From an uncultured Bacilli bacterium (GTDB lineage Bacteria; Bacillota_I; Bacilli_A; RFN20; CAG-826): a stretch of DNA of 64,000 bases. Made by a program: the position numbers and the translations under genes. This document shows positions 11,144 to 63,746 of this stretch, in pieces. Under the pieces are notes generated by a model. That model was not told the DNA's origin, searched no databases, and was given only the letters and a program-made list of their open reading frames with translations. Within the stretch, counting starts at the first letter, position 1. The number at the start of each line of letters is the position of its first letter. The stretch spans positions 37,018-101,017 of the forward strand of contig CAKPNG010000001.1 in the NCBI GenBank assembly GCA_934168325.1, given 5' to 3'.

Positions 11144-11180
11144 GCTGGGAGTATTTTTTACTCCCAGCTTTCTATTTTAT
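11144..11180. terminator. Bidirectional intrinsic terminator
   Basis: Stem GCTGGGAGT/ACTCCCAGC flanked by T-rich runs on both strands. Confidence 0.65.
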
Positions 11181-11892
11181 ATACCTTATTAAAAGTGTGC
11201 GAAGCATAATAACCAATACCTACGGCATCAGCTTCATCTTCTGATAAAGACACGTCATATTTATCTTTTGCTAATATTTGCATAGCTCTTTTGCGATCTG
11301 TCCGCGTTTTACCTTTAATTCCACAATAATTCCGCCAAGTCGCTGTATGACAAATTTCATAAGGAATTTTTAATTGGTAAACAGTATTAATTAAAACCCC
11401 TTGAAGCCAAGCCAGTTTTTGAAAAACTATCACACCCATTTGACGATTTTCACTTTTATCCTAAAGCTATATTCCTTCAAAAGCAATTAAGTCAGGTGAG
11501 TAATTAATAATCATTGAGTTCAGCCAAACTCTAATTTGGTTAATGCGGTCATCGTCATCACCACCGCCGGCTTCAAATATACCATATTTAACTAATTGTT
11601 CATTATCAAAAATAGCCCAGCCCGTTAAATGGCTTGCCTAATCTAATGCTAGTGTTCTTTTAACTCCTCTCGGCTTTGAAACAATTTCTTTTGTCATTTG
11701 CTTTAACTAATTCTATTGACAAATTGGACAAAAACGTTTATCTCGCTATTTTTTCCAAGTAGAGTAAACTTTATGTCCTTCATCGCACTCAAACACTAAT
11801 TCACTATCTAAATTCTTATATTCTTGAGAAATTAATTTCCATTTGTCCTATGTCAAAGTTTCTTTAATTTGCTCAATTGTTATTTTACTCAT
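11158..11892 (-). CDS. ruvC: RuvC-like Holliday-junction resolvase with N-terminal zinc ribbon; 7 in-frame TAG
   Basis: The C-terminal part is listed ORF 11158-11439 (..DEADAVGIGYYA). Extending upstream through TAGs gives MTKEIVSKPRGVKRTLALD*ASHLTGWAIF...IAFEGI*L*DKSEN, a RuvC N-terminus. Further upstream lies a zinc ribbon (FECDEGH...CPIC). The ATG at 11892-11890 overlaps the dUTPase TGA. Confidence 0.65.
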
Positions 11893-13140: not shown

Positions 13141-14415
13141 TCAAATTTTTTTGCGTAAAATTTGGTTTAAAATAAAGCCCAATACAATAGCGAGACTAAC
13201 TCCACTAAAAGCACTATCAAAAAGCCAAATCCCACTAACACCTACTGTCAATATGACAGAAACAATAATTAAATTTTTATTATCTTCTAAATCAACTTTA
13301 TTATTTAATAAAGTCTTAAGACCACTAGATGCAATATATCCATAAAGAATCATTGCACAACCGCCAAACACACAAGAAGGAATTGAATTAAAGAAGACTT
13401 GAATTGGTTCAAAAAAAGCAAGCCCGCCTAAAATTAAAGCAGATATTGTTGTTATTACTGTTGAAGCAACACGGCTAAAACCAATTGTTGCTATTGCCTC
13501 GCCATAGCTGGTATTAGGCAGTCCGCCCACAATTGAGCCAACTGTTGAAGCGATACCATCACCTAAAAGTGTTTTGTAAAGTCCTGGTTTTTTTGTTAAA
13601 TCAGTTCCAATTATATTCGATAATACTTTATGATCTGAACAATGCTCCATCGCCGAAGCTAAACTAACAGGGACAAATAGTAAAATAACTTTACCAATTG
13701 TTGCCCAGTTAAGTTCTGAAAAATTCCAATTCATAAAAGTTAATTGAGGAAATTTAAATAAACTAATTCCTCTAAAGGCTTCAAGATCAATAAGTGAAAT
13801 AACACCACTTATAGTCAAAATTAAACTTACAATATAACCTGCAAAAATACCAATTAAAAAAGGAATTGTTTTCCAAAAGCCTTTAAAATAATGTGAGCTA
13901 AGAGCTACTACAAACATAACAAAAATTGCAATAACTACACCAATTTCAGACTGTTCTCCATTAACTTGGACGTAAGTCGGGATAAAACCCGCAAGATTTA
14001 CACCAATTACAATTGTAATAGCTCCAATTATTGTAGGCGGGAATAATTTATTAAAGCTATCCTGTCCTTTTATTTTAATTAAAAGAGCCAATAATCCATA
14101 AACAATTGCAATAACTACACCACCAATTGCAACTGCCAAGTAATTGGGAGCTGCGCCGATTGCAAGAGCACCTATAACTGCGGAAACTGTAGCTCCGCAA
14201 GAAGAAATCAACATTGGAGATTGACCTTTGGTAATTAACTGGTAAGTTAAAGTGCCAAGACAAGCACCAAGCAAACACGCATCAATAGGTGTTCCGCAAA
14301 TATTAGCAATTAAAATTGTTGCAACAATACAACTCGACACCATTTGGAGTGGGTAAAGCGCCCACTCTTTTAGCGTTTTTGGCTTTTCATTTATATCATA
14401 AAGGAGATTTTTCAT
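13141..14415 (-). CDS. NCS2-family nucleobase permease (uracil/xanthine permease-like)
   Basis: About 12 TM segments. Motifs LFPPTIIGAITIVIGVNLAG and GLPNTSYGEAIATIGFSRV match the UraA family. Confidence 0.8.
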   Translation of the reverse strand: MKNLLYDINEKPKTLKEWALYPLQMVSSCIVATILIANICGTPIDACLLGACLGTLTYQLITKGQSPMLISSCGATVSAVIGALAIGAAPNYLAVAIGGVVIAIVYGLLALLIKIKGQDSFNKLFPPTIIGAITIVIGVNLAGFIPTYVQVNGEQSEIGVVIAIFVMFVVALSSHYFKGFWKTIPFLIGIFAGYIVSLILTISGVISLIDLEAFRGISLFKFPQLTFMNWNFSELNWATIGKVILLFVPVSLASAMEHCSDHKVLSNIIGTDLTKKPGLYKTLLGDGIASTVGSIVGGLPNTSYGEAIATIGFSRVASTVITTISALILGGLAFFEPIQVFFNSIPSCVFGGCAMILYGYIASSGLKTLLNNKVDLEDNKNLIIVSVILTVGVSGIWLFDSAFSGVSLAIVLGFILNQILRKKI

Positions 14416-14516
14416 TAATCAAATTCAACCTCCTTTTCTTTTATAAAGGCAATTACTTCTTCAATTGAAGAAACAAGGACACCACTTTGTTTAATAATGC
14501 CCGTCACAAAAATGTT

Positions 14517-14930
14517 CTAATAACTATACTGTTGTTCACCGAGAGAACTTGCTCCGCCCGCATCTTTAGCGTCGCTATGAGTTAAATAACACTGACGGTT
14601 ATCAGTACAAATTCCAACTATATATTTATGATCACCGCGGCGAATTTTTTCTCTCATTATACCAATTTCTGAGCAAGTTCCACTTGGAAGGACATCGCCA
14701 TCAATGCACGCTACAAGAATGTCAGTATTATCAAGTCTTGCACAATCAGCGTTTGCAATCATTTGAGAATCTGCAAACTTCTTTTTCCCTTCAACACCAT
14801 TAATCTCGGTGTTTTGAAGGGGGTCATAAATATCGGCTGTTGGGAAAGCTTCAGTTAGTTTTTCAAAAAAATAGTCATTGCGAAATTTATCACCTAAACA
14901 AAAAATTCCGCCAGCTAAATAAATTTTCAA
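14517..14930 (-). CDS. Nucleoside 2-deoxyribosyltransferase-like protein
   Basis: TTG start after RBS aaggagg. Motifs YLAGG..F and SGTCSEIG (catalytic Glu). Ends in TAG, followed by a 33-codon open extension. Confidence 0.5.
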   Translation of the reverse strand: MKIYLAGGIFCLGDKFRNDYFFEKLTEAFPTADIYDPLQNTEINGVEGKKKFADSQMIANADCARLDNTDILVACIDGDVLPSGTCSEIGIMREKIRRGDHKYIVGICTDNRQCYLTHSDAKDAGGASSLGEQQYSY

Positions 14931-22486: not shown

Positions 22487-22514
22487 ATTATATCATAATT
22501 TATCTTAAAAGTCA
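22487..22514 (-). promoter_or_regulatory. sigma70-like promoter upstream of dnaE
   Basis: rc TTGACT-N16-TATAAT. Confidence 0.5.
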
Positions 22515-23179
22515 AGTTTTTGATAAATATATACTGATTCATCAGTTGAATTAACTAACCCGCCAATTGATTTCACTCGTTTGATATTTTTTAAAGGTAT
22601 TATATCAATTAATTCAAAACCTTTTCTATGAATAATAGCTGAAGTATCTGCTATTAAATTATGATTTTTTAAATCTTTTATATTCAAGGCTAAAATTCCT
22701 TTTGGAATTAAATATTGTTTAATATTTTCAATAGTTGGTTCAAAATATTTTAAAAGCCAATCGTTATAATTAGGATAAAGCTTAATACTTTGTTCGCCAA
22801 TATTATAGTTTTCTAAATCGAAATAGGGAGGGCTACTAAAAGCTAATCCAACTGAATTGGCCCACTCAGGAATAAAAATTTCACTACCGCAATCTTTTAA
22901 AACAACTTTACTATTATTAGATATATTGCTTTTCCAGTCTTTTGTAAAATCATTAAGGCGCTCAATTAATAAATAATTAGGGTCGGTTCCAAAATAATTT
23001 TTATTATGTTTTAAAGCAGAAGTTAATCTTGCTCCCCATCCACAACTAAAATCATAAATAGTATCATTTATCCCATATTTTTCAATGACTTCATCTGCGA
23101 CTTTAATTGGAAAATTAGTGGGAATTTGAGCATAAGCTTTTCCTCCTAAACTGATTGCTTTTCCGATATTATAAGCCAA
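22505..23179 (-). CDS. DNA N6-adenine/N4-cytosine methyltransferase
   Basis: Motif I DFSCGWGARL and motif IV SSPPY. Confidence 0.75.
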   Translation of the reverse strand: MAYNIGKAISLGGKAYAQIPTNFPIKVADEVIEKYGINDTIYDFSCGWGARLTSALKHNKNYFGTDPNYLLIERLNDFTKDWKSNISNNSKVVLKDCGSEIFIPEWANSVGLAFSSPPYFDLENYNIGEQSIKLYPNYNDWLLKYFEPTIENIKQYLIPKGILALNIKDLKNHNLIADTSAIIHRKGFELIDIIPLKNIKRVKSIGGLVNSTDESVYIYQKLDF

Positions 23180-23290
23180 AGAACAATTAGTATCAAAAGT
23201 TTTAGGGCTTCTTTCAACTTTTCCTTTAAAAAGACTAAATAACTCAGGACTTTCAAATACATCTTCTACAGCCCATTTAGCAGTAGAACA

Positions 23291-23497
23291 CTAAGTTTTA
23301 CACATTAAATCACGAAAATAATAGCGTGTAATTTTATCATTCATTACCCCGCCACTTGCAATTTTTCGCATTTGAGCAATAACAATATTTTTATCTGGTT
23401 TATTAAAAAATTCAGTTTTTGAAGCTAATCGTTCTTCTTCGCTACTTTCTGAATAAATAGAAGTATTAATTGTTTTACCTTTATACTCAATTTTCAT
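23291..23497 (-). CDS. Hypothetical small protein
   Basis: ORF only. Confidence 0.3.
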   Translation of the reverse strand: MKIEYKGKTINTSIYSESSEEERLASKTEFFNKPDKNIVIAQMRKIASGGVMNDKITRYYFRDLMCKT

Positions 23498-26745: not shown

Positions 26746-27770
26746 TTTCTAATGGCCCGGACTATATCTTAAATGGTTTTATATAACCACCTATAACCGT
26801 TTCGAGTATCTTACCACTAGATACCCTACTCTAAGATTGACCTTAGATAGTCTCTACAGGTTTTATAAAGAGAGTTTATTAATTTCCGCAAATTGATCGG
26901 CAGTAATGCGGATAAATTTATATTTTCGTTCACATCTATTATTCTAACAGATGCTACTATAAATTTTATTATATGTAGTATTATATTTTTCTGTAAAACA
27001 CCGAATAGATAAAGAAGTATCTTCAATTTGACCAGTAGTTTCATTAATCTTTGCTACGCAACATTTAAATCGAGCTAAAAAATTTTTTAACCATTTTTCT
27101 TTTTCGTTTTCTTTTATCCAATAATAACCATGATGTGCTTGCCCAGTATTACTTGCTTTTTGTATAGCACGAAAATCAACTCCAGTATTCCTACAGGCAT
27201 CCCGGAAGCCCTTATGAATAGCAATTAAATGAAACTAATATCCATCAAAAGAATATTGCAAAATATTATCATATTTTGCCTAATGAGTTTCTTTTAATTT
27301 TTCTATTACTTGTGGGCTATAAACTGGATTTAATTTTCCACCCTCTAAGATATTATATGATGTAGTTGCATGAGTCTACTGTATTAAATCATATTCATGC
27401 TAATAAGCTAGTTCTTCAGTAGAATCTAAAATTTCAAATACTTCGAAATTAAAAGCCGACTTTCCATATTTATTATAATCATTTTGTATTTTATAATTAG
27501 GATGCGTATGGCTTTTTAATTTACGAAAATGCTAATGTTCTCGTTTTTTTGGATCAGTTGTAATACCAATATAAAAACTGCCATTTTTTATATTAGTAAT
27601 TTTATAATAATAAAATTTCATAATTAAACTCCTTTATAATTTCCCACGGTATTACCATATCCCATAAGGACTTAGGCTCTCTTACCACCTTAATCTTTCG
27701 ATTTAGTTGACCGTTAGCCATTTAAATAAATGACCCCGCTGGTAAACGGAAAAGTTATATATACGACAAA
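26746..27770 (-). mobile_element. About 1 kb insertion in dnaB carrying a GIY-YIG homing endonuclease (group I intron-like or intronless split)
   Basis: The DnaB reading frame breaks about 18 codons before the stop of ORF 27714-29945 and resumes in ORF 26257-26727. The endonuclease gene fills the gap. Boundaries approximate. Confidence 0.5.
26863..27622 (-). CDS. GIY-YIG homing endonuclease, 6 in-frame TAG
   Basis: RBS aaaggag then ATG 27622. MKFYYYKITNIKNGSFYIGITTDPKKREH*H... with YNILEGG. The ORF track shows only a frame-shifted C-terminal fragment (26826-27044). Confidence 0.7.
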
Positions 27771-29945
27771 TTTTTTATCGTTTCTCAATCCATGTCCTCG
27801 AAATTCAGACAATAACGCAGGTGAAATAAAAATATAGTCATAAAAAATAAAATCAATTTGATGAAGAATTGCTTGCTCTCTTATAATATTTTGCAAAGTT
27901 TGAATATTCGGATCGGGAATACGAATAATTGTAAAATTATCCTCATACTCTTTCATTATGGTATAAGCACCTTGCAATCGTTTTTCAACCTCTTTATCAA
28001 AATGTCCATATTTAAATACGCTTTCGGGAACTCCACTTAAATAGGACAAAACTTTCTTTTGGGCTTGCTCAATCATTTGTTCAGTAATTATAAATAAAAT
28101 ATGTTGATTGCTTCCTTGCTGTTCCCATTTGCCTGTTTGCTCATCATATCTAATTGGAAAAGCCAAATAGCAAGCATCCGCGAAAGCAGTAGAGGTATTA
28201 TGAGTAGTAATATAATCATTAATTAAAAATAAATGAGATTCATTATCTACTTGGAAGCAAGTCATATCTGTAAATTTTCCAGTAGGCTGAATATTGACAA
28301 TAACATTGTTGTCTCGGCGCTCATTGCGTTTTTCATTATTAGCGTAATCAAAAGCAATTTGTTTTTTTCTTGTTAAACGAAAAAGAGCTATTTTTTCTTG
28401 TTTATTACATTGGATATGAACTCTATAACAAATATGAGTAGGTTTATGCTTATCTTCTGTAATTGTTGCAATATACCCAAGCTCCCAGCATATTTGCTGG
28501 ACTTGTTTAGCCATTTGCTTACTAATAGAAAAATAGCTGATGCGTCCTTTTTGATCAATTGTTCCATCTGTATCTAAAAGCCCTTGTAATAAAGCCTTTC
28601 GTTGTTTAATTGATCCCTCTAGATAATCTTCTGGAATAAATTTATCTTCACTTTTACAATTAATTAATTGTGGGTAATTTTTTAAAAGCTCATCAACATG
28701 AAGATTAGTTCTATCTGTTATTTGTTGTTTAAATTTAAATGTCCATCCATAGTTAAATTGTGAATTTTTCTTATAATTTAAATTAAGCAGGCTAGCTATA
28801 GAAGCTACAAGCTCTTCATCAGCACTACTAAATGTAAAAGCAGAAGAAGGACTATACATTCTAAAACTACCATCACCAAGTGCAGCACCCATAACATAAG
28901 GATCAGGATATAATATTTTTTCTTCTTTTTGTAAGGGTTTGTTTAAGGGGACTGAATAATGATAAGCCCCATCTGATAATTGTATCTGTTGATTGACTAA
29001 TTGCTCAGTAGTAAAAACATTTAGTTTTTTCTTATTTTTTGCGCGGCTATTAAAAACACTCCATAAATGATCTTTACAACATTCAGTTGTTCTACCATCT
29101 TTAAAAGTAATTTTGTAAATCTCTTTAGGTTCTATTTGTGGGTAAACGCCAATAATTTGTGTAGGCTTTCCATCGTCTCCCCAAAGAGAATCTCCTATAT
29201 TTAATTCTCCAATTGTTCTTTCACCATTAGGTGTCGGAATTTTTAAATAATTAGGTAAGGCTTTGCCACACCCCGATGGAGCTGATCTAATTGTTAAACA
29301 ACCTTTTTGTGCTCCACTTAAAACTTGATTATAAATTGTTCCTTGTAGCGGGATTCCAATTTCAGCTCCAACTTTTAAATTCCCAATTAATTCATCAAGT
29401 CCGTCTGTTAATTTTACAACATTAATTTCACTATTTAAGGAATATTCATTTTCCAACTTCAATAATTTTTGTTTAACATTGGTGCAAATTTCTTCAATTG
29501 TCGTATTTTCGAAACGACCATTAACTTCCGCAAATTTTGTGCTTAAAGCATCATCACAATAATAATCACTAATATCAAAACCTTGTTTTTGTAAATCTCT
29601 TAATAAATTGATTTTTTTTAATTTTAAATAATAATATTGAAATCCACTGGTATCTTCCGCAACTAAATCCAATATATCTTGTATATATTCTCTACCATTC
29701 TGTTCATTAAAAGTATGAATTGCTTTTGGATTTGACGATAGATAATTTTCAATATCAATAACGGAAATTTTTTTCATTCCCTGGCTATATAAACCGCTTA
29801 TTGCTGTAAATATATATTTTTGAAATCTTGTATTAAAATCATTTACACTTAAATTAAATTTATCTGTCTGCGATAATAGCGTCGGGTTATTCGCTAAATG
29901 TCCAAGCACTTCCTGAATAGCATTTTTATCAGTAATACTTTTCAC
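27714..29945 (-). CDS. dnaB: DnaB-family helicase N-terminal part (exon 1 or N-fragment) containing an intein; last ~18 codons probably read into the insertion
   Basis: DnaB N-domain, then LTDGLDEL...GCLTIRSAPSGCGK | intein | TSTAFADACYLAF...IFYDYIFI (Walker A and H2). Exon end estimated near 27771. Confidence 0.75.
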   Translation of the reverse strand: MKSITDKNAIQEVLGHLANNPTLLSQTDKFNLSVNDFNTRFQKYIFTAISGLYSQGMKKISVIDIENYLSSNPKAIHTFNEQNGREYIQDILDLVAEDTSGFQYYYLKLKKINLLRDLQKQGFDISDYYCDDALSTKFAEVNGRFENTTIEEICTNVKQKLLKLENEYSLNSEINVVKLTDGLDELIGNLKVGAEIGIPLQGTIYNQVLSGAQKGCLTIRSAPSGCGKALPNYLKIPTPNGERTIGELNIGDSLWGDDGKPTQIIGVYPQIEPKEIYKITFKDGRTTECCKDHLWSVFNSRAKNKKKLNVFTTEQLVNQQIQLSDGAYHYSVPLNKPLQKEEKILYPDPYVMGAALGDGSFRMYSPSSAFTFSSADEELVASIASLLNLNYKKNSQFNYGWTFKFKQQITDRTNLHVDELLKNYPQLINCKSEDKFIPEDYLEGSIKQRKALLQGLLDTDGTIDQKGRISYFSISKQMAKQVQQICWELGYIATITEDKHKPTHICYRVHIQCNKQEKIALFRLTRKKQIAFDYANNEKRNERRDNNVIVNIQPTGKFTDMTCFQVDNESHLFLINDYITTHNTSTAFADACYLAFPIRYDEQTGKWEQQGSNQHILFIITEQMIEQAQKKVLSYLSGVPESVFKYGHFDKEVEKRLQGAYTIMKEYEDNFTIIRIPDPNIQTLQNIIREQAILHQIDFIFYDYIFISPALLSEFRGHGLRNDKKFVVYITFPFTSGVIYLNG
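28197..29261 (-). mobile_element. Intein with LAGLIDADG homing-endonuclease domain in the DnaB P-loop
   Basis: Hint N-block KIPTPNGERTIGEL; LAGLIDADG motifs YVMGAALGDGSF and LLQGLLDTDGTID; C-terminal ITTHN followed by Thr+1. Start is Ala229 (restores GCGKT) or Cys226. Confidence 0.7.
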
Positions 29946-37548: not shown

Positions 37549-37899
37549 TTAAATCACCTCCATTTTGAGTAAACTATTATCTGCCATAGGAAGACTCACA
37601 AATGAAAGTTCAGTAGTTAAATAATTTTCATTTCTGAAAGAATAAGGTACTTGTGGCCCTATACCTCCATAGTAATAATCAGATGATATTGTAGAATTTA
37701 TTACATTTAAAACAGGTCTTACAAGCTGAGTAATAAAGACATCTTGCCCTTTCCATTTTGTTTTTATTTTTAAATAAAAAGGTTTCCCATTTTCAAAATC
37801 AATTGTAGACATATCAAAATAAGAAGTCCCGCAATAATTACATTTATGTTGTTCAGGATTAATTACCGCTCCGCAATTAGGACAGTTTGTTTTCATCAC
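37549..37899 (-). CDS. Zinc-ribbon protein
   Basis: CPNCGAV...CNYCG. Confidence 0.45.
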   Translation of the reverse strand: MMKTNCPNCGAVINPEQHKCNYCGTSYFDMSTIDFENGKPFYLKIKTKWKGQDVFITQLVRPVLNVINSTISSDYYYGGIGPQVPYSFRNENYLTTELSFVSLPMADNSLLKMEVI

Positions 37900-38070
37900 T
37901 ATCTCTCCTCCTTTACTTCATAATTTGGTGGCACATAATTTTCAGCTTTTCGCCAACGCCACCCATCACTTTCCCATATAAGGAAAAAAGTTGTTGTAAA
38001 AACATTATCCAAATAAACATCAAGAACTGTTGATATAACACCAGTCTCTTTATTTTTGACTTTAAACATT
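37897..38070 (-). CDS. Small hypothetical protein (57 aa)
   Basis: ATGTTTAAAGTC... overlaps the next start. Confidence 0.3.
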
Positions 38071-38152
38071 CAATGCTCCTTTCAATTTATTTCTAATTAT
38101 AGTATAATAAAAAAGAGAGAAAAAATCAAATTTCTCTCTAAAAATTTTTTAT

Positions 38153-38333: not shown

Positions 38334-39413
38334 TTAATCCCACTCCTGAATTTTCTTCGCGGCGCCACGTCGTTTTGACAGCCAAAACAAATTTTTCTTT
38401 GCTCTAGTAATTGCAACATAATTTACAAAAATTTCATCACTGTTCCATTTATTAATTGCTCCATAAACCACAACATTATCAGCTTCAAGTCCTTTTGCAC
38501 TATGAATTGTTAATACTTTAACTGAATTTTTTTCCATTAACTCATTTAAATGAGCAACGGTCATATTTTTCATTTTAAAAGTATCATTAGGAATTTCATA
38601 AACATTTAATAGAGCTTGCATTTCTTCAACCTAACGATTAGAACGACACAAAATAAACCAGCTTTTATAATCTCGCTTATTTTTAATTTGTTGAATTAAT
38701 TTTAAAAAAGAACTCCAATTAATAAATTGAACAGTTCCACTATTTTCGGTCATTGCCCGCGAATCATCTCGATAATCCCAGCCTTTTTGTGCAATTGTTT
38801 GCTTCGCGAAAGAAAGAATTTGTTGTGCATTTCTATAATTTTGTGTTAATTTAAAAACAGAAACATCTGGCTGTTGCATAATACGAAGCAACATATCAGG
38901 ACGACTCCCATTAAATTGATAAATTGTTTGTCGTAAATCGCCAATTAACATAAAATTTTTTGGTTTAATCATATCAATTAAAAAGTCAAATTGCTCGGCG
39001 GTGCTGTCTTGAGCTTCATCAAGAAACAAATATTGAACTGGCTGAATGCAATTAGGGTGTAGTCTAACCATTTCAAAAAGTTTATCAAAATCTTCGTTTT
39101 CTACAGCTTCGGAAACATCATAACCACAACACTTTAACAAATATGAAGCATAACTATGAACTGTTGAAATATGAATACCTTTTGGATTTTTTAATCGCCG
39201 TAAAATATTATCAGCCGCCAAATTTGTAAAAGTAATTGCAACAATTTGACTTGGATGAATATGCCGCTCTTCAATTAACCATCTAATTCTTTCTGTTAAA
39301 CAATGTGTCTTTCCAGCAGCGGCGGCGCAGAGAATAACAGAATAAGGCTTGGTTGTATAGACTACTTCTTTTTGCTCCAAACTTAATTCCATTTTAACCA
39401 CCTGCCTTTTCAT
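38334..39413 (-). CDS. UvrD/PcrA-like helicase, continuous only through one in-frame TAG (38631-38633)
   Basis: N-part Walker A CAAAAGKTH and TFTNLAA (motif Ia). After TAG then V-E-E, the same frame continues into ORF 38334-38621 with motifs V/VI (HSAKGLEADNVVV, VAITRAKK). Confidence 0.7.
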
Positions 39414-40179
39414 TTAAGAGAATTTTGCTTCCATAGAAGTCAATGTAGAATTTTTCACGAGCATTTAATTGGTCTTTTGGACAAACTTCAACTAACTTAA
39501 ATAAAAAACGGTCTAAGCCATCCTGTGCCATTACAGTGTGGAGATAAGAATGAGCAATTGTGCCTATTCCTAATGCTGATTTAACGTGTTCAGTCCATCT
39601 CTTCATTATATCAACACTACGGCCAATGTAAAATTCTCCCGTTTTAAGTCGTGTAATTTTATAAATGCCGCTCACTGGAGCTTTTAAAACCCGTTTTTCC
39701 ATTAAATCAAGCGGCCGCCTAATAAACTCATTATAAATTAATTTATTTAAAGCTTCTTTATTAGTTAAAATAGGACGAATTTGCTCTAAATTTTTTATAT
39801 CTGATTTTGCCTCATCAGTCAAACAAATACGATAAAAATCTTTATGCTCTTCAATTTCTCGCCGTTTCAAAATATCAGCATTAATCGCGGCCTGCTTTTC
39901 TTTCATTTCATTTAAATCATTCCAAACACAAGCTCGCTCATCTTTTAATAATTCTAATTCGCGGAACTCATTTTGGTATTGATTTTCTAATTGTTCCTGG
40001 ATACCATTCTTTAATTGTTGATTTTCTTCATATAAATCTTGAATTGTATTATTTAAATTCTAATATTCATTTAATAAATTCGCCTGCGTGTGTTTATTTA
40101 TTATAATTTCATGAATTAAATATCCAATTATTAAACCAAAAAATAGACTTAAACCTAAACATATAAATAAAATTTCCAT
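39394..40179 (-). CDS. Membrane-anchored coiled-coil protein with C-terminal GIY-YIG nuclease domain; 1 in-frame TAG
   Basis: GIYKITRLKTGEFYIGRSVDIMKRWTEH. Upstream extension through TAG (40060-40062) reaches ATG 40179, with an N-terminal TM segment MEILFICLGLSLFFGLIIGYLI. Confidence 0.55.
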
Positions 40180-40265
40180 TATTTATTAAAACTCCTATTT
40201 CTTTATAATTTTATTATAACATAAATTTAACTTTAAGTCAAATTTTTTTAATCATTATAAAACTC

Positions 40266-40294
40266 TTGACTTTTTTAGAAAACTGTGGTATATT
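40266..40294 (+). promoter_or_regulatory. sigma70-like promoter with extended -10 (TTGACT-N17-TGgTATATT)
   Basis: Sequence match. No obvious + strand ORF downstream. Confidence 0.45.
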
Positions 40295-40429
40295 AAAACA
40301 TAGGGAAAGCCTATTTATTATATATATAAATAAATAAATAAAAATATAAGTTTTTATTTCTTTCTTTTTCTTTTGCTTCTTTTCTTTTTCTTTCTTGCAA
40401 TATTTACGGAGATTCTAAAATTTGATTTT

Positions 40430-40465
40430 CCCATAAAAAAAGAAGGTCAATCACTGACCTTCTTT
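40430..40465 (-). terminator. Intrinsic terminator
   Basis: AGAAGGTCA/TGACCTTCT hairpin with a T7 run on the - strand. Confidence 0.7.
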
Positions 40466-40939
40466 ATCTTCGCATGGCTCACAGAGTGCTTTTTTTACTT
40501 TATCTTCACAAAGCCCGAATAGCCTATCACCATTATTATTGCCGCCAAGCGATTTATAAGTATCGTATTCATTACATAAATGCAAATATTCATTTTCTGT
40601 AATTTTATGATCTTCTTCTAAATAACGGCTACATTTCTTTTTAAAATAGTCCCCTTGAAGACATAGCATACCATTTTTTAATAAATCCTAATCTTGTGTT
40701 ATTTGGTCAATTTGGCTTTGTAAATGGCGATCATTCTCATTTACTATTGTTGTAATTGTAGAAGCTGTTTCATTAAGCATTTCCTTAAAGTCGGCAATCA
40801 GAGCCGCATGAATTTTACTTTCTCTTCCACTTTTTTCTTTTTTATACATAGACCAAATTTGTTTAATACAAATACTGGCGCCCGCGACGACTAATCCAAA
40901 AGCAACCTCTACCCAATATTTGATGATCCATTCTATCAT
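40451..40939 (-). CDS. Membrane protein with Cys-rich C-terminus; two listed ORFs (40688-40939 and 40451-40669) fused through one TAG
   Basis: ORF 40688.. ends in TAG. Same frame gives D-L-L-K-N-G then M of ORF 40451... Confidence 0.4.
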
Positions 40940-40989
40940 CGGGCACGACCTCCTTTAAGTAATAAATCGTTATGATAGCGATTTCTTAC

Positions 40990-41364
40990 CTAATTTTCAA
41001 TTTTAAAAATGTCCGTTGGAGAATTAATTATATCGATTTTCCAATAAGGGATTCGATATAGCGGAATAGAGTGAGCTAAAGCATAAGAGTTTTTCTTACG
41101 GTCGCGTTCTTGAGCTTCGAGAAAATTACTGTATCTTTTATGATAAAATGGAGAGAATTTAAAATGTAGATCGCTGTCATATTCAACTAAAGCCACTAAC
41201 TTTGACGCACGCGAAAAAACGGCAAAATCATATCTTAATGATTTTCCGTTATGTCCTTTTAAATCAGAAAATAAATATTCTGTTTTTACCTTATAACCGC
41301 CATTGGTTAAAACTGATAATACTTTCTTAGCTCCTTTACTTAACTCACTCATTTCCTCACCCAA
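40990..41364 (-). CDS. Hypothetical protein (124 aa); ends in TAG
   Basis: Intact ORF. Readthrough would add about 18 codons. Confidence 0.5.
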   Translation of the reverse strand: MGEEMSELSKGAKKVLSVLTNGGYKVKTEYLFSDLKGHNGKSLRYDFAVFSRASKLVALVEYDSDLHFKFSPFYHKRYSNFLEAQERDRKKNSYALAHSIPLYRIPYWKIDIINSPTDIFKIEN

Positions 41365-41821: not shown

Positions 41822-43066
41822 ATGCCTGAAAAAATCTTAAAAGCTCGCATTTTGTTAAGAAATGACGAAACTGCTAATTGGCTGAAAAATTAGAATACAG
41901 TTCTTGAAAAAGGTGAAGCTGGTGTTGAATTTTTAGCTGATGGTAAAACTAAAATTAAAATTGGTGACGGCGTAAAGAAATGGTCCGAACTTCCTTATAT
42001 TGGTGGCGAAGACATAGCTCAAACTCAAGTATTTCAAGTTGAAGCTCAAGCCGAACAAGAAGACCTCACTGTAATTGCTACTGCTGTTGGCGATGCTGTA
42101 TTACAGAGTGGAGACGTTGCAATTGTAAAAAGAGCAATTGCAGGTGAAAAATATGAATATACTGCTTATGTTTATAATGGCACTGCTTGGTGTGCTATGG
42201 ATGGCAACTACAATGCAGAAAATGTTTATTTTAGCAAGGACTTAATTACGACTTCTGCTGTTGGCAACATTACTCTTACTAATGGCCAAGCGACTATCGC
42301 GGCCACGGGTAAAAACTTAAAGCAAGTATTTGATACTATTTTTGTTAAGGAAAAGAATCCAACAATCACACAGCCTTCTGTTGGAGTAACTCTTGGAAAC
42401 TCGGGTGCTAAAGAAGTTGGAACAAAAGTAGTGCCTTCTTATTCTACTACATTCAATAGCGGAAAATATGAATTTGGCCCTGCAACAGGATGTAATCCTA
42501 CTTCTTGGTCGGTGACTGATAGTAATGGCTCTACCCCTCTTACCACTGCAACTGGTAAATTTGCAGAAATTACTGTTGCAGATGATACTAATTATAAAGT
42601 AAATGCTACTGTAAATTATAGTGAAGGTGCTATTCCTAAAACTAATATTGGTAATGATTATCCTGCTGGAAAAATTGTTGCGGGCAATAAATCTGCTGAT
42701 TCTTATACCATTACTGGTTACAGAAATTCTTTCTATGGCACACTTACTGAAAAGGGCGAAATTACAAGTGATATTATTCGTGCTTTAATTGGAAAATCTA
42801 ATAAAGCTTTTGGCAATGGAGCTGATTTTACAATTATACTTCCTGCTGGAGCAATGAGAGTTATATTTGCCTACCCTGCAACCTTAAGAGATGTTACTAG
42901 TGTTAAAGATGTTAATGGTCTTAATGCCGAAATTAAGAGTTCTTTTACTAAATCTACTCTATCTGTTGAAGGTGACAATGGTTTTGCTGGTATTGATTAT
43001 AAAGTTTATACAGCCGATTTTGCAGCTCCAATAGAGAAAACAAATTCTTATGCAGTTAAAATATAA
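41822..43066 (+). CDS. Tail fibre/receptor-binding protein paralog 1; 1 in-frame TAG (41891-41893)
   Basis: N-terminus ARILLRNDETANW...GDGVKKWSELPYIGG is shared with the 44708 and 46289 genes. Joins listed ORF 42197-43066. Confidence 0.7.
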
Positions 43067-43086
43067 TTTTAGGAGGGAAATAAATA

Positions 43087-44661
43087 ATGGCTATGGATTT
43101 TGGAAAACTTGATTTCGCAGTATCGTTTAACCGATTAACTGCCTTCCCTCTTGATGCAAAGAGCTATTTTGAGAGTTTAGAGAGTGCTCAAGCTGCGGCT
43201 GCAACTGCCGAGGGTGCAGGTAGCTCGAATACTACTTATTATTTTGGTCAGCAAATTGCTGTTGTTGAGGGTGGAGTTGCTACTCTTTATGTAATTCAGC
43301 CAGATAAGACTCTTAAAGAAGTCGGCGGAAAAATTGCAATTAACGGAAATGTTTTTGTTAAAGATGCGGAAGGTAAGCTTGATTTACTTGGATTTGTCGA
43401 TGCTACTGCTGGTGCTCAGCTTGTTAAATCTGCTGATGGCAAACTTTCTTGGGTAAAGCCCGACACTACTACTGTTGAAGGACTTTCTACTGCCGTAGAA
43501 GGTTTAAAAGCTGATGTTGCTAGTTTAAGAACTGATGTTGGTAAAGCTGCACAGGGCGAAACCGCCGCGACTGGCTTATTTAAAGAAGTTTCGGATATTA
43601 AAGGTTCTCTTGCTCAGCAAGCAACCAATATTAGCGGTAAAGCAGATAAGGCAACTACACTTGCTGGTTATGGCATCACTGATGTTTTTACAAAAACTGA
43701 GACAAATTCGGCAATTGCTAAAGCTATTTCTGAAAGTGGCCATGCTCAATTTGTAAAAGTTGATGCTGTTCCTTTTGCGGAAGAAGCCGAGGCAAATAAA
43801 CTTTATTTAGTTTATAATGAAACAACTCAGCATTATGACATTTATGCAAAGGTTGATGACGCAGTTGAATTACTTGATGATACTACTGTTGATTTAACTA
43901 ACTATTATAAGAAAGACGAAGTTAATACAGAACTTGCTAAAAAAGTTGATAAAGTTGATGGTAAAGGGCTTTCTACTGAAGACTTTTCTACTGAACTTAA
44001 GAATAAGTTAGTTGGAATTGCTGAAGGCGCCGAAGTCAATGTAGTTAAAAGTGTTAAGGATACTGATTTTGTTGTTAGTGCAGAAGGTCAGCTTCAATTA
44101 AAAGACACTATTTCTACTGCGGTCAATGCTGTCGCAAATAAAGTCGATAAAGAAGAAGGCAAGAGCCTTGTAAGTGATACTGAAATTACTAAACTTACAA
44201 CTGTCCAAGAAAATGCTGAACCCAACTATATTAAGAATGTTGATGCACAGTTCGAAGTAAGTGCTGAAGGTCAGTTATCTCTTAAAGAGCTTGCTCAAGA
44301 TAAAATCACTGGGCTTCCTGCGGCACTTGAGGGAAAAGTTGATAAAGTCGAAGGTAAAGGTTTATCTAAAAACGACTTTACTGATGAATTTGTTACAAAA
44401 CTCAATGCAATAAATCTTGAGAATATTCAAGCTAATGTGATTGAAAAAATCACTCTTAACGGCGTAGAAACCCAAATAGTTGAAAAAACTGTCGATATTC
44501 CACTTGCGACTACTGCTCAATTTGGTCTTGTTAAAGGCTCTGACGCTGAAAATGAGGTCGCAATTAAAGCCGATGGTGTTATGAGTGTTAATACTCTTAA
44601 TATACAAAAGCTTTCTCAAACTGAGGGCGAAACCTTAGTTCTTGATTGCGGGAAAGCTTAA
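43087..44661 (+). CDS. Tail fibre protein with three KVDKVDGKGLS..DF..L repeats
   Basis: Internal repeats and Ala-rich coiled segments. TAG-free. Confidence 0.65.
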   Translation: MAMDFGKLDFAVSFNRLTAFPLDAKSYFESLESAQAAAATAEGAGSSNTTYYFGQQIAVVEGGVATLYVIQPDKTLKEVGGKIAINGNVFVKDAEGKLDLLGFVDATAGAQLVKSADGKLSWVKPDTTTVEGLSTAVEGLKADVASLRTDVGKAAQGETAATGLFKEVSDIKGSLAQQATNISGKADKATTLAGYGITDVFTKTETNSAIAKAISESGHAQFVKVDAVPFAEEAEANKLYLVYNETTQHYDIYAKVDDAVELLDDTTVDLTNYYKKDEVNTELAKKVDKVDGKGLSTEDFSTELKNKLVGIAEGAEVNVVKSVKDTDFVVSAEGQLQLKDTISTAVNAVANKVDKEEGKSLVSDTEITKLTTVQENAEPNYIKNVDAQFEVSAEGQLSLKELAQDKITGLPAALEGKVDKVEGKGLSKNDFTDEFVTKLNAINLENIQANVIEKITLNGVETQIVEKTVDIPLATTAQFGLVKGSDAENEVAIKADGVMSVNTLNIQKLSQTEGETLVLDCGKA

Positions 44662-44707
44662 TTAAATCTTTTCCATAAAAATATTTTATTTTAAGAGGTA
44701 AGTATTA

Positions 44708-46222
44708 ATGGCGCAAGATAAAATTTTACAAACTCGTATTTCGTTAAAATACGATACCTATGCAAATTGGCATAGTAAAAATCCGCAACTCCTCGAAGGT
44801 GAGGTTGCGGTCGTTGTGATTCCTGGTAGCGATCCAGTTGGAACCATTAGTAATGTTCCTACTGTGTTATTTAAGGTTGGTGACGGCACTAAGAAATTTG
44901 ATGATCTTCCTTGGGTATCTGGTCCCGCAGGCGATGTTTATGCTTGGGCAAAAGAGGCTAATAAACCTTCTTATTCTGCAACTGAAATTACTGGTTTAGA
45001 CACCTATATTTCTGGTCAAATTCAAGACACCGATACTCAATATAAAATTGCAATTAGTGGCAGAACTGTTCAGTTATTTAAGAAAGATAAGGGTGGTGCA
45101 TTTGGCACTACACCTGATTCTACTTTTAATCTTCCCGATGAAACTGTTCATACTTTAGTTGAAGGCACCACAAACGGCACTGTTAAATATGATGGCACTG
45201 ACGTAAAAGTTCATGGACTTGGCTCTGCGGCCTATGAAGATAAGACTTTCCTTGATACAAAAATTGCCGAAGCTAAGAAAGCCGGCACGGATGCCCAGAC
45301 TGCTGTCGATACTTTATCTGGCAAAGTCGGCACTGTCCCTGAAAATAAAACTGTCATTGGCTTAATTGCCGAAGCAAAGAAAGCTGGCACTGATGCTCAG
45401 GCTTCTGTTGGTGCTCTTGATACAAGAGTAGGTGTAATTCCTGATGGGGCTGCGGCTACTACTGTTGTAGGATATGTTGATGAAAAAATTGGAGCAATTC
45501 CTACTCAAACAGATTATTCTGTAAGTGTTTCCAATCCTACTTCTACTACTTATGCTCAAGTTTATGAATTTAAACAGCTCGGCAAGACAATTGGCACTAT
45601 CAATATTCCTAAAGATATGGTAGTGCAGAGTGGTAGTGTTGAGACTAAAGCAACCGCTGGTGCTTGGGGCGAAGCTGGCACATATCTTCATTTAGTGCTT
45701 GCAAATGCTGACAACAGCTCCATTTATATTAATGTTGGCGACCTCATTGAATATGTTTCTGCTGGTTCTGGAGAAGACGATGCCATTCAAATCGATATTA
45801 GTGCTGACCACAAGGTAAGTGCTTCTGTTAAGAATGGTTCCATTACTCTTGCTATGCTGGATGCCGCTGTTCAGACTGACATTGGTAAAGCGCATACTCA
45901 TACCAATAAAACTGTTCTTGATGGTATTTCCGCTGAAAAAGTTTCTGCTTGGGATTCGGCTGAACAAAATGCAAAAACTTATTCTGATGGACAATTGGCT
46001 GGCACTATTACTGGTTTAGCCAGTCAAGCTGTTGTTTCTTCTGATGAAGCGGATGGTAGCTTCTATGCTTTATCCAATATTACTCAAGCTTCTGGTAAGA
46101 TTAAAAAAGAAAACGAAGTTAAATTTGCAAAAATTGCAAAAACTGCTAATGTAGCTGATTTAGTGCAAACAGAAGGCAACTATGTAGTATTTAATTGCGG
46201 TTCCGCAACCACAAACATTTAA
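44708..46222 (+). CDS. Tail fibre/receptor-binding protein paralog 2
   Basis: Shared N-terminal domain. TAG-free. Confidence 0.65.
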   Translation: MAQDKILQTRISLKYDTYANWHSKNPQLLEGEVAVVVIPGSDPVGTISNVPTVLFKVGDGTKKFDDLPWVSGPAGDVYAWAKEANKPSYSATEITGLDTYISGQIQDTDTQYKIAISGRTVQLFKKDKGGAFGTTPDSTFNLPDETVHTLVEGTTNGTVKYDGTDVKVHGLGSAAYEDKTFLDTKIAEAKKAGTDAQTAVDTLSGKVGTVPENKTVIGLIAEAKKAGTDAQASVGALDTRVGVIPDGAAATTVVGYVDEKIGAIPTQTDYSVSVSNPTSTTYAQVYEFKQLGKTIGTINIPKDMVVQSGSVETKATAGAWGEAGTYLHLVLANADNSSIYINVGDLIEYVSAGSGEDDAIQIDISADHKVSASVKNGSITLAMLDAAVQTDIGKAHTHTNKTVLDGISAEKVSAWDSAEQNAKTYSDGQLAGTITGLASQAVVSSDEADGSFYALSNITQASGKIKKENEVKFAKIAKTANVADLVQTEGNYVVFNCGSATTNI

Positions 46223-46288
46223 TTTTAATTATAAAGAGGTGGGTCGTCTTAGGGCGGCCCACTTCATATGAAGAAAGGAGGCTTCTTA

Positions 46289-47293
46289 ATGGCTAATACT
46301 GAATTTAATGTAAGAATTTAGTTAAAGCGTGATACTGATGCAAATTGGCGAGCAAAAGATCCTCAATTATTAGCAGGCGAAGTTGTTTTTGTTGATACGA
46401 ATGCGGGCGAAGTAAGAACTAAAGTTGGCGATGGAACTAAAAAATATAGTGCATTACCTTTTATGGATGAGGTATTAAGAAACCTCATTTCAAATACAGA
46501 ACATTTATTTAAAGTAAGGGCTGTTTGCGACTTAGCTGGTGATACAACTACGCCAACAACAATTTTAGAACATGAAGATATTGGTGAGATTCTTTCTGCT
46601 GCAATAGATACTACTCGGCCAGTGGTAGCAGAAATTCAGTCATAGGACAATGAATACGATAAATTATGGCTACCATTAGTTTATTTTAATCCTGATAAAG
46701 AAGAAGCTAGTTTTATAGGGCCTCTTAGTGCAAGCGCTTGGTTTACATTAGAGTTTACAAATGGAGCTTGGTTTTTTGGACGAATAGACTTAGCAAAATT
46801 AACTGATATTCCAACAAAACTTTCTCAGCTTGAAAATGACACTAATTACCTTAATTCTGATACAAACTTTGTTCATAAAACAGGTGATGAAGAAATTAAG
46901 GGAATAAAAACTTTTGAAAGTTCTATCGTTTGCTCTATGACACCAGGCAATGAAAATCATTTAGTTAATAAAAAATATGTTGATAATAAAGTCGGCACTT
47001 ATTTACCTCTTGCGGGCGGTAAAATGACTGGTAATATCCAAATGAATAATAAGGAAATTACACAAGCCGCGAAAATAGGGTTTTTAAGGGGAGCGTATTT
47101 TGAAAGTTCAAATATATAGCAACAAAATGTAATTTCTGCTTTTACTTCTGGTGGTAGTACTCTTGCTTATCTTAATGCTTATGCTCAAACTCCAAAAGCA
47201 ACTGATAACGTGATGGTTCTCGCAAATAAAGAATATGTCGATAAAAAAACAACAGTCCTGTTAAAAACTTGGACTTCTGCCGATATTAGTTAA
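46289..47293 (+). CDS. Tail fibre paralog 3 with collar-like motif; 3 in-frame TAG
   Basis: MANTEFNVRI*LKRDTDANW... joins ORFs 46463.. and 46937... Contains LPLAGGKMTGNIQMNNKEIT. Ends in TAA. Confidence 0.65.
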
Positions 47294-47296
47294 ATT

Positions 47297-47324
47297 TGAC
47301 TTTTAACTAAAATTATGTTATAAT
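47297..47324 (+). promoter_or_regulatory. sigma70-like promoter
   Basis: TTGACT-N16-TATAAT. Confidence 0.5.
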
Positions 47325-47349
47325 AAATTTAACTAAAAGGAGAGATAAA

Positions 47350-48171
47350 ATGGCAACTGAACAAACTTTAACTACTTTAATTATAAATGAAGTAGATAGT
47401 AAAGAAACATTTAATAAAATGAAAGCATAGGGTTTGATTAATGAAAAGGAACTCTATTTAACACCAGAAGAGGCTGCAGAACATCAAATTAAAGTTCAAA
47501 ATGATGAACCTACTAATGCTGTAGCTAATGATTTATGGCTTGATTTAGATGAAGATGCTCCAGCTTCTTTACCAGTTAGTGGCGGTACTTTAACTGGTCC
47601 ACTAGCTATGAGCAACAATAAAATTACAGGAGTAGGAGATCCTACTTCTGCTCAAGATGTCGCAACAAAAAATTACATTGACATTTCCTTTTTAGCTTTA
47701 AGCGGTGGCACAATTAATGGTGATTTAGTACTTGGCCCTACGAGTTCTTTAAAATTTTAGATTGGAAACTCAGCTTTTACAATAAAAGCAGGTGGTCAAG
47801 GCTTATTGGTTCCTGCTCCAATTTTTATGACCGCTCAGGGCAATCCTTCAACATAGACTGCCTTAGTAACTATGGGACAATGTACCGAGGCATTTGCGCC
47901 AAAAATAGCTAGTGTTAGTGCAAGTGGAGCAATTAATCAAACTTTAGTAAAAAATAGAGATTATACCTTTACTTCTGTTTCTTCTTTAAATTTAACAGCA
48001 GGAACTGGCTCCTGTCATGGATTCATAACTTTTGGTAGTTCTACACCTACTGTTTCGCTTTCAGGTTTTACAAAAGTAGATGGTGATATAGCTAATGCTG
48101 CGGCTTCAACGGTTTGGGAATTTTCTTGTTATAATAAATATGCTGTGTTTAAGAACTGGAGTGAGGTGTAA
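47350..48171 (+). CDS. Tail fibre-like protein; 3 in-frame TAG
   Basis: SGGTLTGPLAMSNNKITGVGDPTSAQDVATKNYID. N- and C-terminal regions are paralogous to the 52434 gene. Confidence 0.65.
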
Positions 48172-49327: not shown

Positions 49328-50305
49328 TTGATTACTTCCGAAGAAATTAAAAACATAAAACAAAAATTAGGTAATGAAATGGCACGGCGTCGTTGGTATG
49401 GCAATTTAAATGTTAGCCCTTATAATGCGACTATAATGAGTAATGCTACACAAATTACCAAAGGGTCAAAAATGTTAGCATCTTAGGGTAATGAAATTTT
49501 AACCCCTTTAAACAAAATAGCAACAGACAGTAATTTACCAATTGCCACGGCTAATAGCCCAATTCCCAATACATTTAATTATAATGCTTTAAATGAGAAA
49601 ATAACAGCATGGTCCGCAGAAGATATTGCAGGAAGCGTTACTTCTTGCGGAGCGGTCTGTACTGGTTTATGCACAACCACTTGTGCTAGTGGATGCGGCG
49701 GCGGTTGCGATTCTTCTTGTGGTAAGAATTGCGGTTCTGGATGCTCTAATGAGTGCAAAGGTGGCTGTTCAGGTAATTGTGCGGCCGGTTGCGGTGGTAG
49801 TTGTGGTTCGAGCTGTTCTAATGCTTGTTCAGGAAGCTGTGGTGGAAACTGTGGTTCAAATTGTAGTGGTTGTGGTGGAAAATGCTCAGCAGCCTGCACT
49901 TCGAGCTGTAGTTCGGGGTGCGTAGGAGATTGTAAATATACTTGCACAGGTAGTAGTGCTAGTGGTGCTAGTTGCAGTAGTAGCTGTACTGCTACTTGTC
50001 ATCATGTATGTAAGAATGGTTGTTCATCTTCTTGCTCCTCAACTTGTGGAAAAACTTGCAGAGTCGATTGCAATTCAAGTTGTTCTGATGGTTGTGATAG
50101 AGGCTGTTCTGGCAGTTGCGGTTCTGGTTGTTCTGGAACTTGCTCAGGTGGCTGTGATGGCTCATGTGGGAGTGGTTGTTCCAGTCAATGCTATGGTGGT
50201 TGTTCCGCTCAATGTGTAATGGCTTGCACTGGCGGTTGTGGTAGTGGTTGCACTCATTCTTGTGCAACAAGTTGTTCAACCTTATGTGTTAATGCCGCGT
50301 CATAA
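49328..50305 (+). CDS. Cys-repeat protein: about 100-aa N-domain plus about 53 Cys in CxxxC periodicity; 1 in-frame TAG (49484-49486)
   Basis: RBS ggagg then TTG. ...SCGAVCTGLCTTTCASGCGGGCDSSCGKNCGSGCSNEC... Ends at TAA 50303-50305. Listed ORFs 49579-49947(-), 49626-49925(+), 49956-50219(+) and 49992-50279(-) are off-frame shadows. Confidence 0.75.
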
Positions 50306-54589: not shown

Positions 54590-54590
54590 T

Positions 54591-55106
54591 TTATTCTCCT
54601 TTTACAATCATTTGATAAAAGTTTTCAGCTTTATCAATTAACATATCAATATCTCCATCGTTATCAATATAATAATCATAAGTGTAATCTTTTACATCAT
54701 TGTCGGCGTGATTTGACTGCTTTACAGCATTGAGACAAGGGCGGTTAATGAAGATCGTTTTGGCCCCTAATCTATCAACCATTTTTTGAATTTCTTTAGG
54801 CTCTCTAACCATTACAAAAATTAAAACAGGTTTGTCATCTTTATTATAAAATTCAATTTCTTTGATACGGTTTTCTATATCAAAATAAGGAACATCATTC
54901 CATTCAGTTAAAAGGTCTTTTAAGTCGCTTAAAAACTTGCGGTTTTTAGAAGTCTTTGTGCCATCCCAACCAGCAACACGGGCGACCTGCTTTACTAAAT
55001 CGACACTACTCATTTTGAAAATACCATCATGGCGAGCACTTATCATATCAACAAAACTATCCTTGCCCGCGGTAGGATAAGAATTTAAAACAAATATATG
55101 TATCAT
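54591..55106 (-). CDS. Deoxynucleoside monophosphate kinase-like P-loop protein
   Basis: MIHIFVLNSYPTAGKDSFVDMI resembles the T4 gp1 N-terminus. Confidence 0.45.
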   Translation of the reverse strand: MIHIFVLNSYPTAGKDSFVDMISARHDGIFKMSSVDLVKQVARVAGWDGTKTSKNRKFLSDLKDLLTEWNDVPYFDIENRIKEIEFYNKDDKPVLIFVMVREPKEIQKMVDRLGAKTIFINRPCLNAVKQSNHADNDVKDYTYDYYIDNDGDIDMLIDKAENFYQMIVKGE

Positions 55107-55968: not shown

Positions 55969-56003
55969 TATAAAATTCTCCTTTTTCTTTTATTTCTAAT
56001 ATA

Positions 56004-56032
56004 ATTATAATATAAATACTGAAAAAAGTCAA
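56004..56032 (-). promoter_or_regulatory. sigma70-like promoter
   Basis: rc TTGACT-N17-TATAAT. Confidence 0.5.
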
Positions 56033-56093
56033 GTTTTCAAATGAATTTTTGACATTATTTTGAGAAAATAAAAAAATAAAGGAGGAATTTCTA

Positions 56094-63672: not shown

Positions 63673-63746
63673 TGGAGGTTCGTTCAATAGTAGGACTCAT
63701 CTCTCTAAAAGATGGAATCGCGGTGCAAATCCACGGCCTCTAGCCA
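63673..63746 (+). tRNA. Amber suppressor tRNA, anticodon CUA, Gln-like identity
   Basis: Acceptor TGGAGGT/GCCTCTA (U1-A72) with G73 and CCA. D GTTC-AATAGTA-GGAC (G10). Anticodon stem CATCT/AGATG with loop CTCTAAA (CTA at 63705-63707). T CGCGG-TGCAAAT-CCACG. Confidence 0.65.

Follow-up and report, generated by a model that had tools for sequence, protein, structure and literature searches.

How does a gene that is interrupted by a stop codon in the middle of a conserved domain give rise to a working protein? This question is raised by a UvrD/PcrA-like helicase gene in the window that we analysed, a 64,000-nucleotide stretch of contig CAKPNG010000001.1, in which several other genes on the minus strand also encounter TAG. 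The preliminary description of the stretch held that these early genes end in TAG and that a suppressor tRNA, by extending them, could remodel their products late in infection. The window is a segment of a tailed phage genome with 33% G+C, and we infer a host within the Bacillota because the replication genes resemble those of Firmicute phages and relatives of the phage carry YorF/YorH-type neighbours.

[quoted passage not shown] TAG recoding is known from crAss-like and Lak phages (Ivanova 2014; Yutin 2021 PMC7886860), and proteomic proof exists for the reading of TAG as Gln (Peters 2022 PMC9523058). Furthermore, orthologues from close relatives, some of them genes of nucleotide metabolism such as dUTPase and an RNR activase, may differ in whether they have a suppressor TAG (Babkin et al. 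2023, PMC10607447).

For comparison, we drew relatives of the window from IMG/VR and from metagenome assemblies, as the annotated phage collection gave no close one. They are designated below by L numbers, L001 being IMGVR_UViG_3300045988_181728.

Results

The helicase gene continues through its TAG

The ATG at 39392 follows a Shine-Dalgarno motif (AGGTGG, read from the sequence) and is therefore the likelier start of the helicase gene; with a start at 39413, the ORF would run from 39413 to 38334 on the minus strand and encode 359 amino acids. According to the preliminary description, one TAG (38631-38633) splits the gene, with helicase motif blocks on either side of it in a single frame. Both statements hold. 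No other in-frame TAG occurs in this ORF, and in the readthrough product the part upstream of the TAG contains the Pfam UvrD N-terminal domain (residues 13-101) and AAA_19, while UvrD_C and UvrD_C_2 (residues 287-343) follow in frame downstream, with UvrD-helicase, AAA_19, and UvrD_C scoring at or above their cut-offs. The matches in the PDB, PcrA, Rep, and UvrD, align through the TAG position. The layout of an SF1 helicase, that is, an N-terminal ATPase domain with motifs I-III and a C-terminal domain with motifs IV-VI, is found in one polypeptide. Where PcrA reads "LYRTNAQ," the window reads "ILCRSNR-TAG," placing the TAG exactly opposite the Gln of motif IV. Every one of the 120 homologues listed is a single protein of 330-367 amino acids; in the TAG column these homologues have Glu (91), Gln (28), or Leu (1), and the three nearest of those listed all have Gln. 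A protein search of the annotated phage collection gave a best match of 36% identity and nothing higher.

At the DNA level, the window and L021, which is an independent assembly, have TAG as codon 261, L001 has CAG, and L006 has CAA, and the helicase gene has TAG elsewhere in L003 and L006. In L006, the gene caller ended the gene at such a TAG, three codons short of a conserved EWD-stop; the window has CAG in place of this TAG. The helicases of the window and L001 are 91% identical in nucleotides and 97% in amino acids. Their dN/dS is 0.03 in the part upstream of the TAG; in the part downstream, where they differ by 19 synonymous and 4 non-synonymous changes, it is 0.04, although this pair joins a TAG-bearing to a TAG-free lineage and the measured constraint may partly predate the TAG.

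The TAG might instead be a nonsense mutation, the mark of a pseudogene, or an assembly error, leaving the gene inactive or expressed as two polypeptides through re-initiation at the ATG at 38621. Such an ATG is indeed present four codons past the TAG, but the Met that it encodes is an ordinary conserved residue that is found in the TAG-free L001 gene as well; a split helicase with re-initiation at this codon was rejected because TAG-free relatives conserve the same Met. Moreover, the identical TAG recurs in L021, the constraint downstream equals that upstream, and TAG is a sense codon in 24 genes of this genome, all of which makes a defect of this kind extremely improbable. The earlier proposal that reading TAG as Gln yields a complete helicase is, by contrast, in agreement with the single-protein homologues, the alignment with Gln, and the constraint past the TAG.

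Other genes of the minus strand encounter TAG

The features considered here are collected in Table 1.

Table 1. Coordinates of genes, TAG codons, RNA genes, and transcription signals in the window
Feature	Coordinates	Strand	Details
UvrD/PcrA-like SF1 helicase	38334..39392	-	352 aa from ATG 39392; single in-frame TAG
Sense TAG (Gln) of the helicase	38631..38633	-	Codon 261; motif IV (ILCRSNR-Q); PcrA alignment
GIY-YIG protein	39394..40179	-	Membrane-anchored coiled coil + GIY-YIG domain; TAG 40060-40062; overlooked before
phrog_4105 protein	40451..40939	-	TAG 40688-40690; PHROG match
Endonuclease-like protein	40936..41352	-	TAG 40990-40992; true stop TGA at 40936
Small conserved ORF	37896..38069	-	Ends ...EER-TAG-TGA; TAG 37899-37901; overlooked before
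GIY-YIG homing endonuclease	26863..27621	-	6 in-frame TAGs; Pfam GIY-YIG, SegE_GIY-YIG; overlooked before
DNA methyltransferase	22505..23497	-	TAG 23291-23293; Pfam N6_N4_Mtase; overlooked before
Nucleoside 2-deoxyribosyltransferase	14415..14930	-	171 aa; TAG 14517-14519; Pfam Nuc_deoxyrib_tr
RuvC-like Holliday junction resolvase	11158..11892	-	7 in-frame TAGs; PHROG 159, 827; overlooked before
Predicted sigma-70/SigA-type promoter	40213..40241	-	TTGACT-17-TATAAT, extended -10; GIY-YIG-helicase operon
Intrinsic terminator	40439..40465	-	12-bp stem + T-run; two-gene unit 41352-40451
Terminator-like hairpin	38114..38139	-	Between helicase operon and core replication genes; conserved TATAAT promoter next
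Suppressor tRNA, anticodon CUA	63673..63746	+	ARAGORN; Rfam tRNA 33.6 bits; cloverleaf fold

For the deoxyribosyltransferase, the TAG and the 33 sense codons following it lie where they had been placed. The protein matches PF05014 at 47 bits (cut-off, 28.8), and PDB entry 7m5h aligns with residues 2-166 of 171, including the segment after the TAG; the full-length fold, with its C-terminal segment, is thus present. Sister genome L008 has CAA in place of this TAG, and its post-TAG part differs from that of the window by 5 synonymous and 0 non-synonymous changes.

Two ORFs upstream of the helicase operon had been read in a similar way. The ORF 40688-40939 was thought to be joined through its TAG to 40451-40669, and we find the same. 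The resulting phrog_4105 protein combines an N-terminal hydrophobic segment, which we read as a TM helix, with a Cys-rich C-terminal part, and its PHROG match covers residues 61-141 with the TAG inside. Its homologues in L003 and L021 are single ORFs that have Q (L003) or TAG (L021) at this position and more TAGs at other positions. The ORF 40990-41364 does run into TAG as described, and 17 more sense codons follow it. This endonuclease-like protein matches HNH and homing-endonuclease PHROGs (559, 9084). Its gene is one continuous ORF in L003 and L021, and the tail behind the TAG, VRNRYHNDLLLKGGRAR, is kept in L003 as VKNRFHNDLISKRR and is found in L002 and L021 as well.

The preliminary description was wrong about the remaining early genes, for which it gave only TAA or TGA as stops, since five further minus-strand genes (Table 1) meet TAG first. 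The GIY-YIG protein encoded next to the helicase matches Pfam GIY-YIG and PHROG homing-endonuclease families; it has its TAG in common with L001, where a second TAG sits opposite a CAG of the window, and the L003 homologue is continuous with Q at the TAG position. In the methyltransferase, the TAG sits in a conserved N-terminal region. The 120 homologues listed for it span the full length, and Gln (52) is the commonest residue in their TAG column, followed by Lys (42), with Gln in all of the five nearest. We found no homologue of the methyltransferase in L008 and none of the homing endonuclease at 26863-27621 among the fetched loci of relatives. These two genes are recent insertions with their TAGs (1 and 6) already inside, since they have no counterpart in a sister genome of 94-97% identity. 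At the distal end of the minus-strand block, the RuvC-like resolvase shares six of its seven TAGs with L008, where the remaining one is CAG. In the small ORF at 37896-38069, the TAG is either the last Gln codon or the stop; relatives carry Lys at this place and then stop. An ORF at 40238-40450 (70 amino acids, one TAG) was dismissed as non-coding, being A/G-rich, intergenic, and without homologue.

Whether the extensions behind TAG are conserved in relatives had been named as a check on the original reading; they are conserved and protein-like and evolve under purifying selection.

Apart from TAG, we noted by eye that the ORF at 27714-29945 on the minus strand, possibly the replicative helicase, seems to be interrupted by an intein-like insert. 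L003 contains at 9163-12771 a GyrA-like gene with an intein that bears a LAGLIDADG domain (precomputed Pfam).

TAG behaves as a Gln codon throughout the window

In-frame TAG occurs in 24 of the 61 genes of the window (39%) and amounts to 86 codons, the two largest late ORFs being interrupted by 15 and 22 of them. Genes that are fragmented by TAG become whole once TAG is taken as sense, as is characteristic of genetic code 15. The final stops of the 61 genes are then TAA (45) or TGA (16), and none is obliged to end in TAG; hence the TAGs at which early genes had been said to end are not gene ends. Chance does not account for this pattern.

When 27 TAG codons of the window are aligned to sister genomes, 23 are TAG there as well, 3 are CAG, and 1 is CAA, which means that all four changed codons are Gln codons. 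Distant orthologues have CAA opposite 15 of 20 TAG-aligned codons. Retention between sisters is 85% for TAG, 86% for CAA, and 71% for CAG. Given that TAG is retained about as well as CAA, at positions that swap with CAG and CAA, it behaves like an additional synonym among the Gln codons. In sister genomes, 5 of the 14 exchanges of TAG are with codons for Ser, Ala, Glu, or Trp rather than Gln, suggesting that change-tolerant positions also gain TAG. The base right after TAG does not differ from that after CAA or CAG (chi-square p=0.22, n=86) and accordingly gives no sign of a context that would promote readthrough or weaken termination.

The likely decoder is a suppressor tRNA with anticodon CUA that lies within a tRNA array. 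It has a U1-A72 pair and G73 as the discriminator, which would be in keeping with a bacterial tRNA-Gln. A tRNA-CUA is present at the same site in L022 (L022 13511-13585), with conserved flanks, and an exact 24-mer of the window tRNA found no match in IMG/VR. Upstream of the array, at 56.5-60.1 kb, several promoter-like sites match the consensus perfectly or nearly so; these are consensus matches only. Neither a release factor nor an aminoacyl-tRNA synthetase is among the ten annotated proteins at 53474-61615, where a ligase, an RNase H, an HTH protein, and an M23 peptidase are annotated.

From these comparisons, we consider it highly probable that the window derives from a phage that reads TAG as Gln (genetic code 15) by means of its own suppressor tRNA and that the TAG-bearing early genes are complete. 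The insertion of Gln itself is presumed from the codon and residue alignments.

A practical point emerged from the database entries. A large protein collection renders TAG as Q for the L021 and L003 contigs (protein ids P0001 and P0003). Since this collection already contains code-15 gene calls, a "Q" in a database may hide a TAG, and the DNA must be checked.

Several features of the tRNA array deserve mention in their own right. Over about 11.5 kb, the window and L022 are 91.5% identical, yet the bodies of their tRNA-CUA genes are unrelated in sequence, with U1-A72 and A73 in L022 and U1-A72 and G73 in the window counterpart. This looks like the replacement of a suppressor-tRNA cassette. In L022, TAG still swaps mainly with CAA and CAG. 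The array also contains a full-length ROOL RNA (62944-63565, plus strand; RF03087, 280 bits; gathering score, 99), which precedes the suppressor tRNA by about 100 nt. A tRNA-like stretch at 62745-62815 on the plus strand, GGTCCGGTAGTTTAATGGTAAAACGCTCTCAGGCACGAGAG...GTTCGAATCCC, was called by neither ARAGORN nor Rfam and may be a degenerate tRNA.

TAG is common in edge genes and rare in core replication genes

The genes for the endonuclease-like protein, the phrog_4105 protein, the GIY-YIG protein, and the helicase, which we refer to as edge genes, form two short units at 41352-38334, between the structural module and the core replication genes. They have 4 TAGs in 917 codons, versus 1 TAG in the 7,844 codons of the core set, which comprises twenty replication and nucleotide-metabolism genes at 37896-11889 and excludes the two inserted genes (Fisher p=0.0012 for TAG versus CAA plus CAG). 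This contrast was defined post hoc, from the data, and repeats in other genomes, namely, IMGVR_181728 (p=0.015) and L003 (p=0.026). Among the Gln codons of the two large late ORFs, 35 of 109 are TAG, compared with 1 of 291 in the core replication genes, and such concentration in late genes with depletion in replication genes is what code 15 leads one to expect. Edge-gene TAGs number 4 in the window, 6-7 in L021 (7 in the four genes as called, 6 within the BLAST-aligned regions), 4 in L003, 2 in L001 (2 genes), and at least 2 in L006. Edge genes thus carry TAG in every lineage examined. The tail-fibre-like genes at 43087-44661 and 44708-46222 have zero TAG, indicating that TAG density does not simply track timing.

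The promoter of the GIY-YIG-helicase operon matches the consensus at 11 of 12 positions and is kept in the window, L021, L001, and L003; the terminator of the preceding two-gene unit is kept in L021 and, with a different stem, in L003. The next unit downstream, with which the core block starts, has a promoter of the same conserved sigma-70 type. Promoter type therefore provides no evidence of different timing, and the promoter calls are weak when taken alone, since the scanned regions contain about as many consensus promoters as expected from shuffled sequence.

The recurrence of TAG in edge genes could reflect either weaker selection against TAG or selection for gating, and the data do not separate the two. 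With gating, selection would keep at least one TAG among the edge genes, at whatever position, and would thereby delay or limit full-length synthesis until the suppressor tRNA accumulates. This is consistent with the TAGs seen in edge genes of every lineage, with the near absence of TAG from neighbouring core genes in three genomes (p=0.0012, 0.015, and 0.026), and with the seven TAGs of the RuvC-like resolvase at the other edge. However, the L001 helicase and the L003 GIY-YIG gene have no TAG, some late tail-fibre-like genes (43087-46222) are TAG-free, and the promoters of the helicase operon and the core block start are alike. The same pattern would also arise if TAG were selected against less strongly in genes of lower importance or expression. 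On balance, we regard such gating as unlikely, and the same holds for the idea that edge genes and the RuvC-like resolvase make up a conserved suppressor-gated class with a TAG kept somewhere in each. If it existed, this class would act as a translational timer, independent of TAG position, within a block whose transcription otherwise starts at host-type promoters, and its DNA-processing enzymes would be full-length only after the phage suppressor tRNA accumulates.

Three further observations were made. L021 and L001, and to a lesser degree L003, conserve a plus-strand site in 40266-40465 that resembles a promoter (TTGACT-17-TATATT with TG). It faces some 150 nt of C/U-rich non-coding sequence, which ends at the hairpin at 40439-40465 and may specify a small RNA running divergently to the helicase operon. 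Of five consecutive plus-strand genes at 41822-48171, four (41822-43066, 44708-46222, 46268-47293, and 47350-48171) begin, as judged by eye, with a similar N-terminal motif; the gene at 43087-44661 has a tail-fibre PHROG match and lacks this motif. The TAG content of the five is sharply uneven (0, 0, 1, 3, and 3). Finally, a 325-amino-acid protein with a long Cys/Gly/Ser-rich repetitive region (49328-50305, plus strand) is directly followed by an ORF of 445 amino acids on the same strand (50327-51664) that by eye appears radical-SAM-like, with a CxxxCxxC motif. The pair resembles a precursor plus maturase in the late gene block.

Discussion

Programmed readthrough of a stop codon generates extended isoforms such as the A1 protein of Qbeta and retroviral gag-pol. 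In such systems, the stop has a fixed position, the short product is complete and functional, and readthrough is partial and driven by context. The phage studied here is similar insofar as a stop codon is decoded as an amino acid and a longer protein is made in one frame. It differs in that its TAG positions vary, its short products are incomplete, and its suppressor tRNA reads TAG genome-wide.

Conceivably, the phage could still operate a programmed switch in which short proteins are made early under the standard code and longer, functionally different ones late through the suppressor tRNA. With their host-type promoters, the genes could be translated before suppression sets in, three of the four edge-gene TAGs of the window are found at the same position in L021, and the general code-switch model has already been published. 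On the other hand, the short forms lack conserved catalytic parts, that is, motifs IV-VI of the helicase and the transferase segment seen in 7m5h, the base after TAG is unbiased, and TAGs occupy different places in L003 and L006. The TAGs of the helicase and the transferase are replaced by CAG or CAA in genomes that are 87-91% identical across both genes. Indeed, the stop position is not fixed among relatives, the helicase codon being TAG, TAG, CAG, and CAA in four close genomes and the transferase codon being TAG or CAA, and neither gene appears to encode a complete functional short product. We consider a switch of this kind very unlikely, and the short helicase and transferase products do not seem plausible as alternative isoforms. 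The proposal that the suppressor tRNA remodels proteins is thus not sustained, given the shifting TAG positions, the incomplete short products, and the presence of TAG in as many as 24 of 61 genes.

Plain decoding of TAG as Gln leads to a simpler view. The best-supported effect of suppression on the TAG-bearing early genes is on/off and not remodelling, because the short forms are without essential parts (motifs IV-VI of the helicase and the C-terminal segment of the transferase). That TAG-bearing genes depend on suppression is supported by the complete conserved proteins that TAG-to-Gln decoding gives. In this scheme, the phage tRNA-CUA would insert Gln at TAG, the full-length proteins would be the functional products, and stopping at TAG would leave inactive fragments only. 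The TAGs would originate from CAG-to-TAG or CAA-to-TAG substitutions and be kept or lost like synonymous changes, being strongly avoided in core replication genes and tolerated in the two short units at 41352-38334. Possibly, some genes need to be translated before suppression is established and others do not, a published idea that the distribution fits. Presumed elements of this scheme are the time at which the tRNA is expressed, its competition with release factor 1, and whatever benefit regulation might bring.

The phage has much in common with the gut phages that use code 15. In-frame TAG occurs in 39% of its genes, compared with reported clade means of 26-71%; it has a phage-encoded tRNA-CUA and TAGs that align with Gln; and TAG is enriched in structural/lysis-type genes and depleted in replication genes. 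Unlike these phages, the window lineage is without close relatives among the phages of the annotated collection, and its replication module resembles that of Firmicute phages. The phAss-1/"Phassvirus" group, which we liken to the window by features and not by sequence, shares TAG recoding with a tRNA-Sup-CTA, TAG at the Gln positions of non-recoded homologues, and a suppressor TAG whose presence differs between orthologues of close relatives; its genomes are about twice as large (136 kb) and have 2-3 suppressor tRNA genes. The window phage is therefore apparently a further, undescribed lineage of a known TAG-recoded kind and does not present a new switch. The contrast in TAG content between edge operons and the core block comes from this analysis and not from the literature.

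In summary, the finding itself reveals no new mechanism, and its relevance lies mainly in annotation. Under the standard code, an annotator would take the helicase, deoxyribosyltransferase, methylase, resolvase, and several further genes for fragments or pseudogenes, whereas reading TAG as Gln restores them. Beyond annotation, the roughly 7,800 near-TAG-free codons of the core genes and the adjacent operons in which TAG recurs, with similar promoters, offer a natural contrast that could be used for testing the code-switch model.
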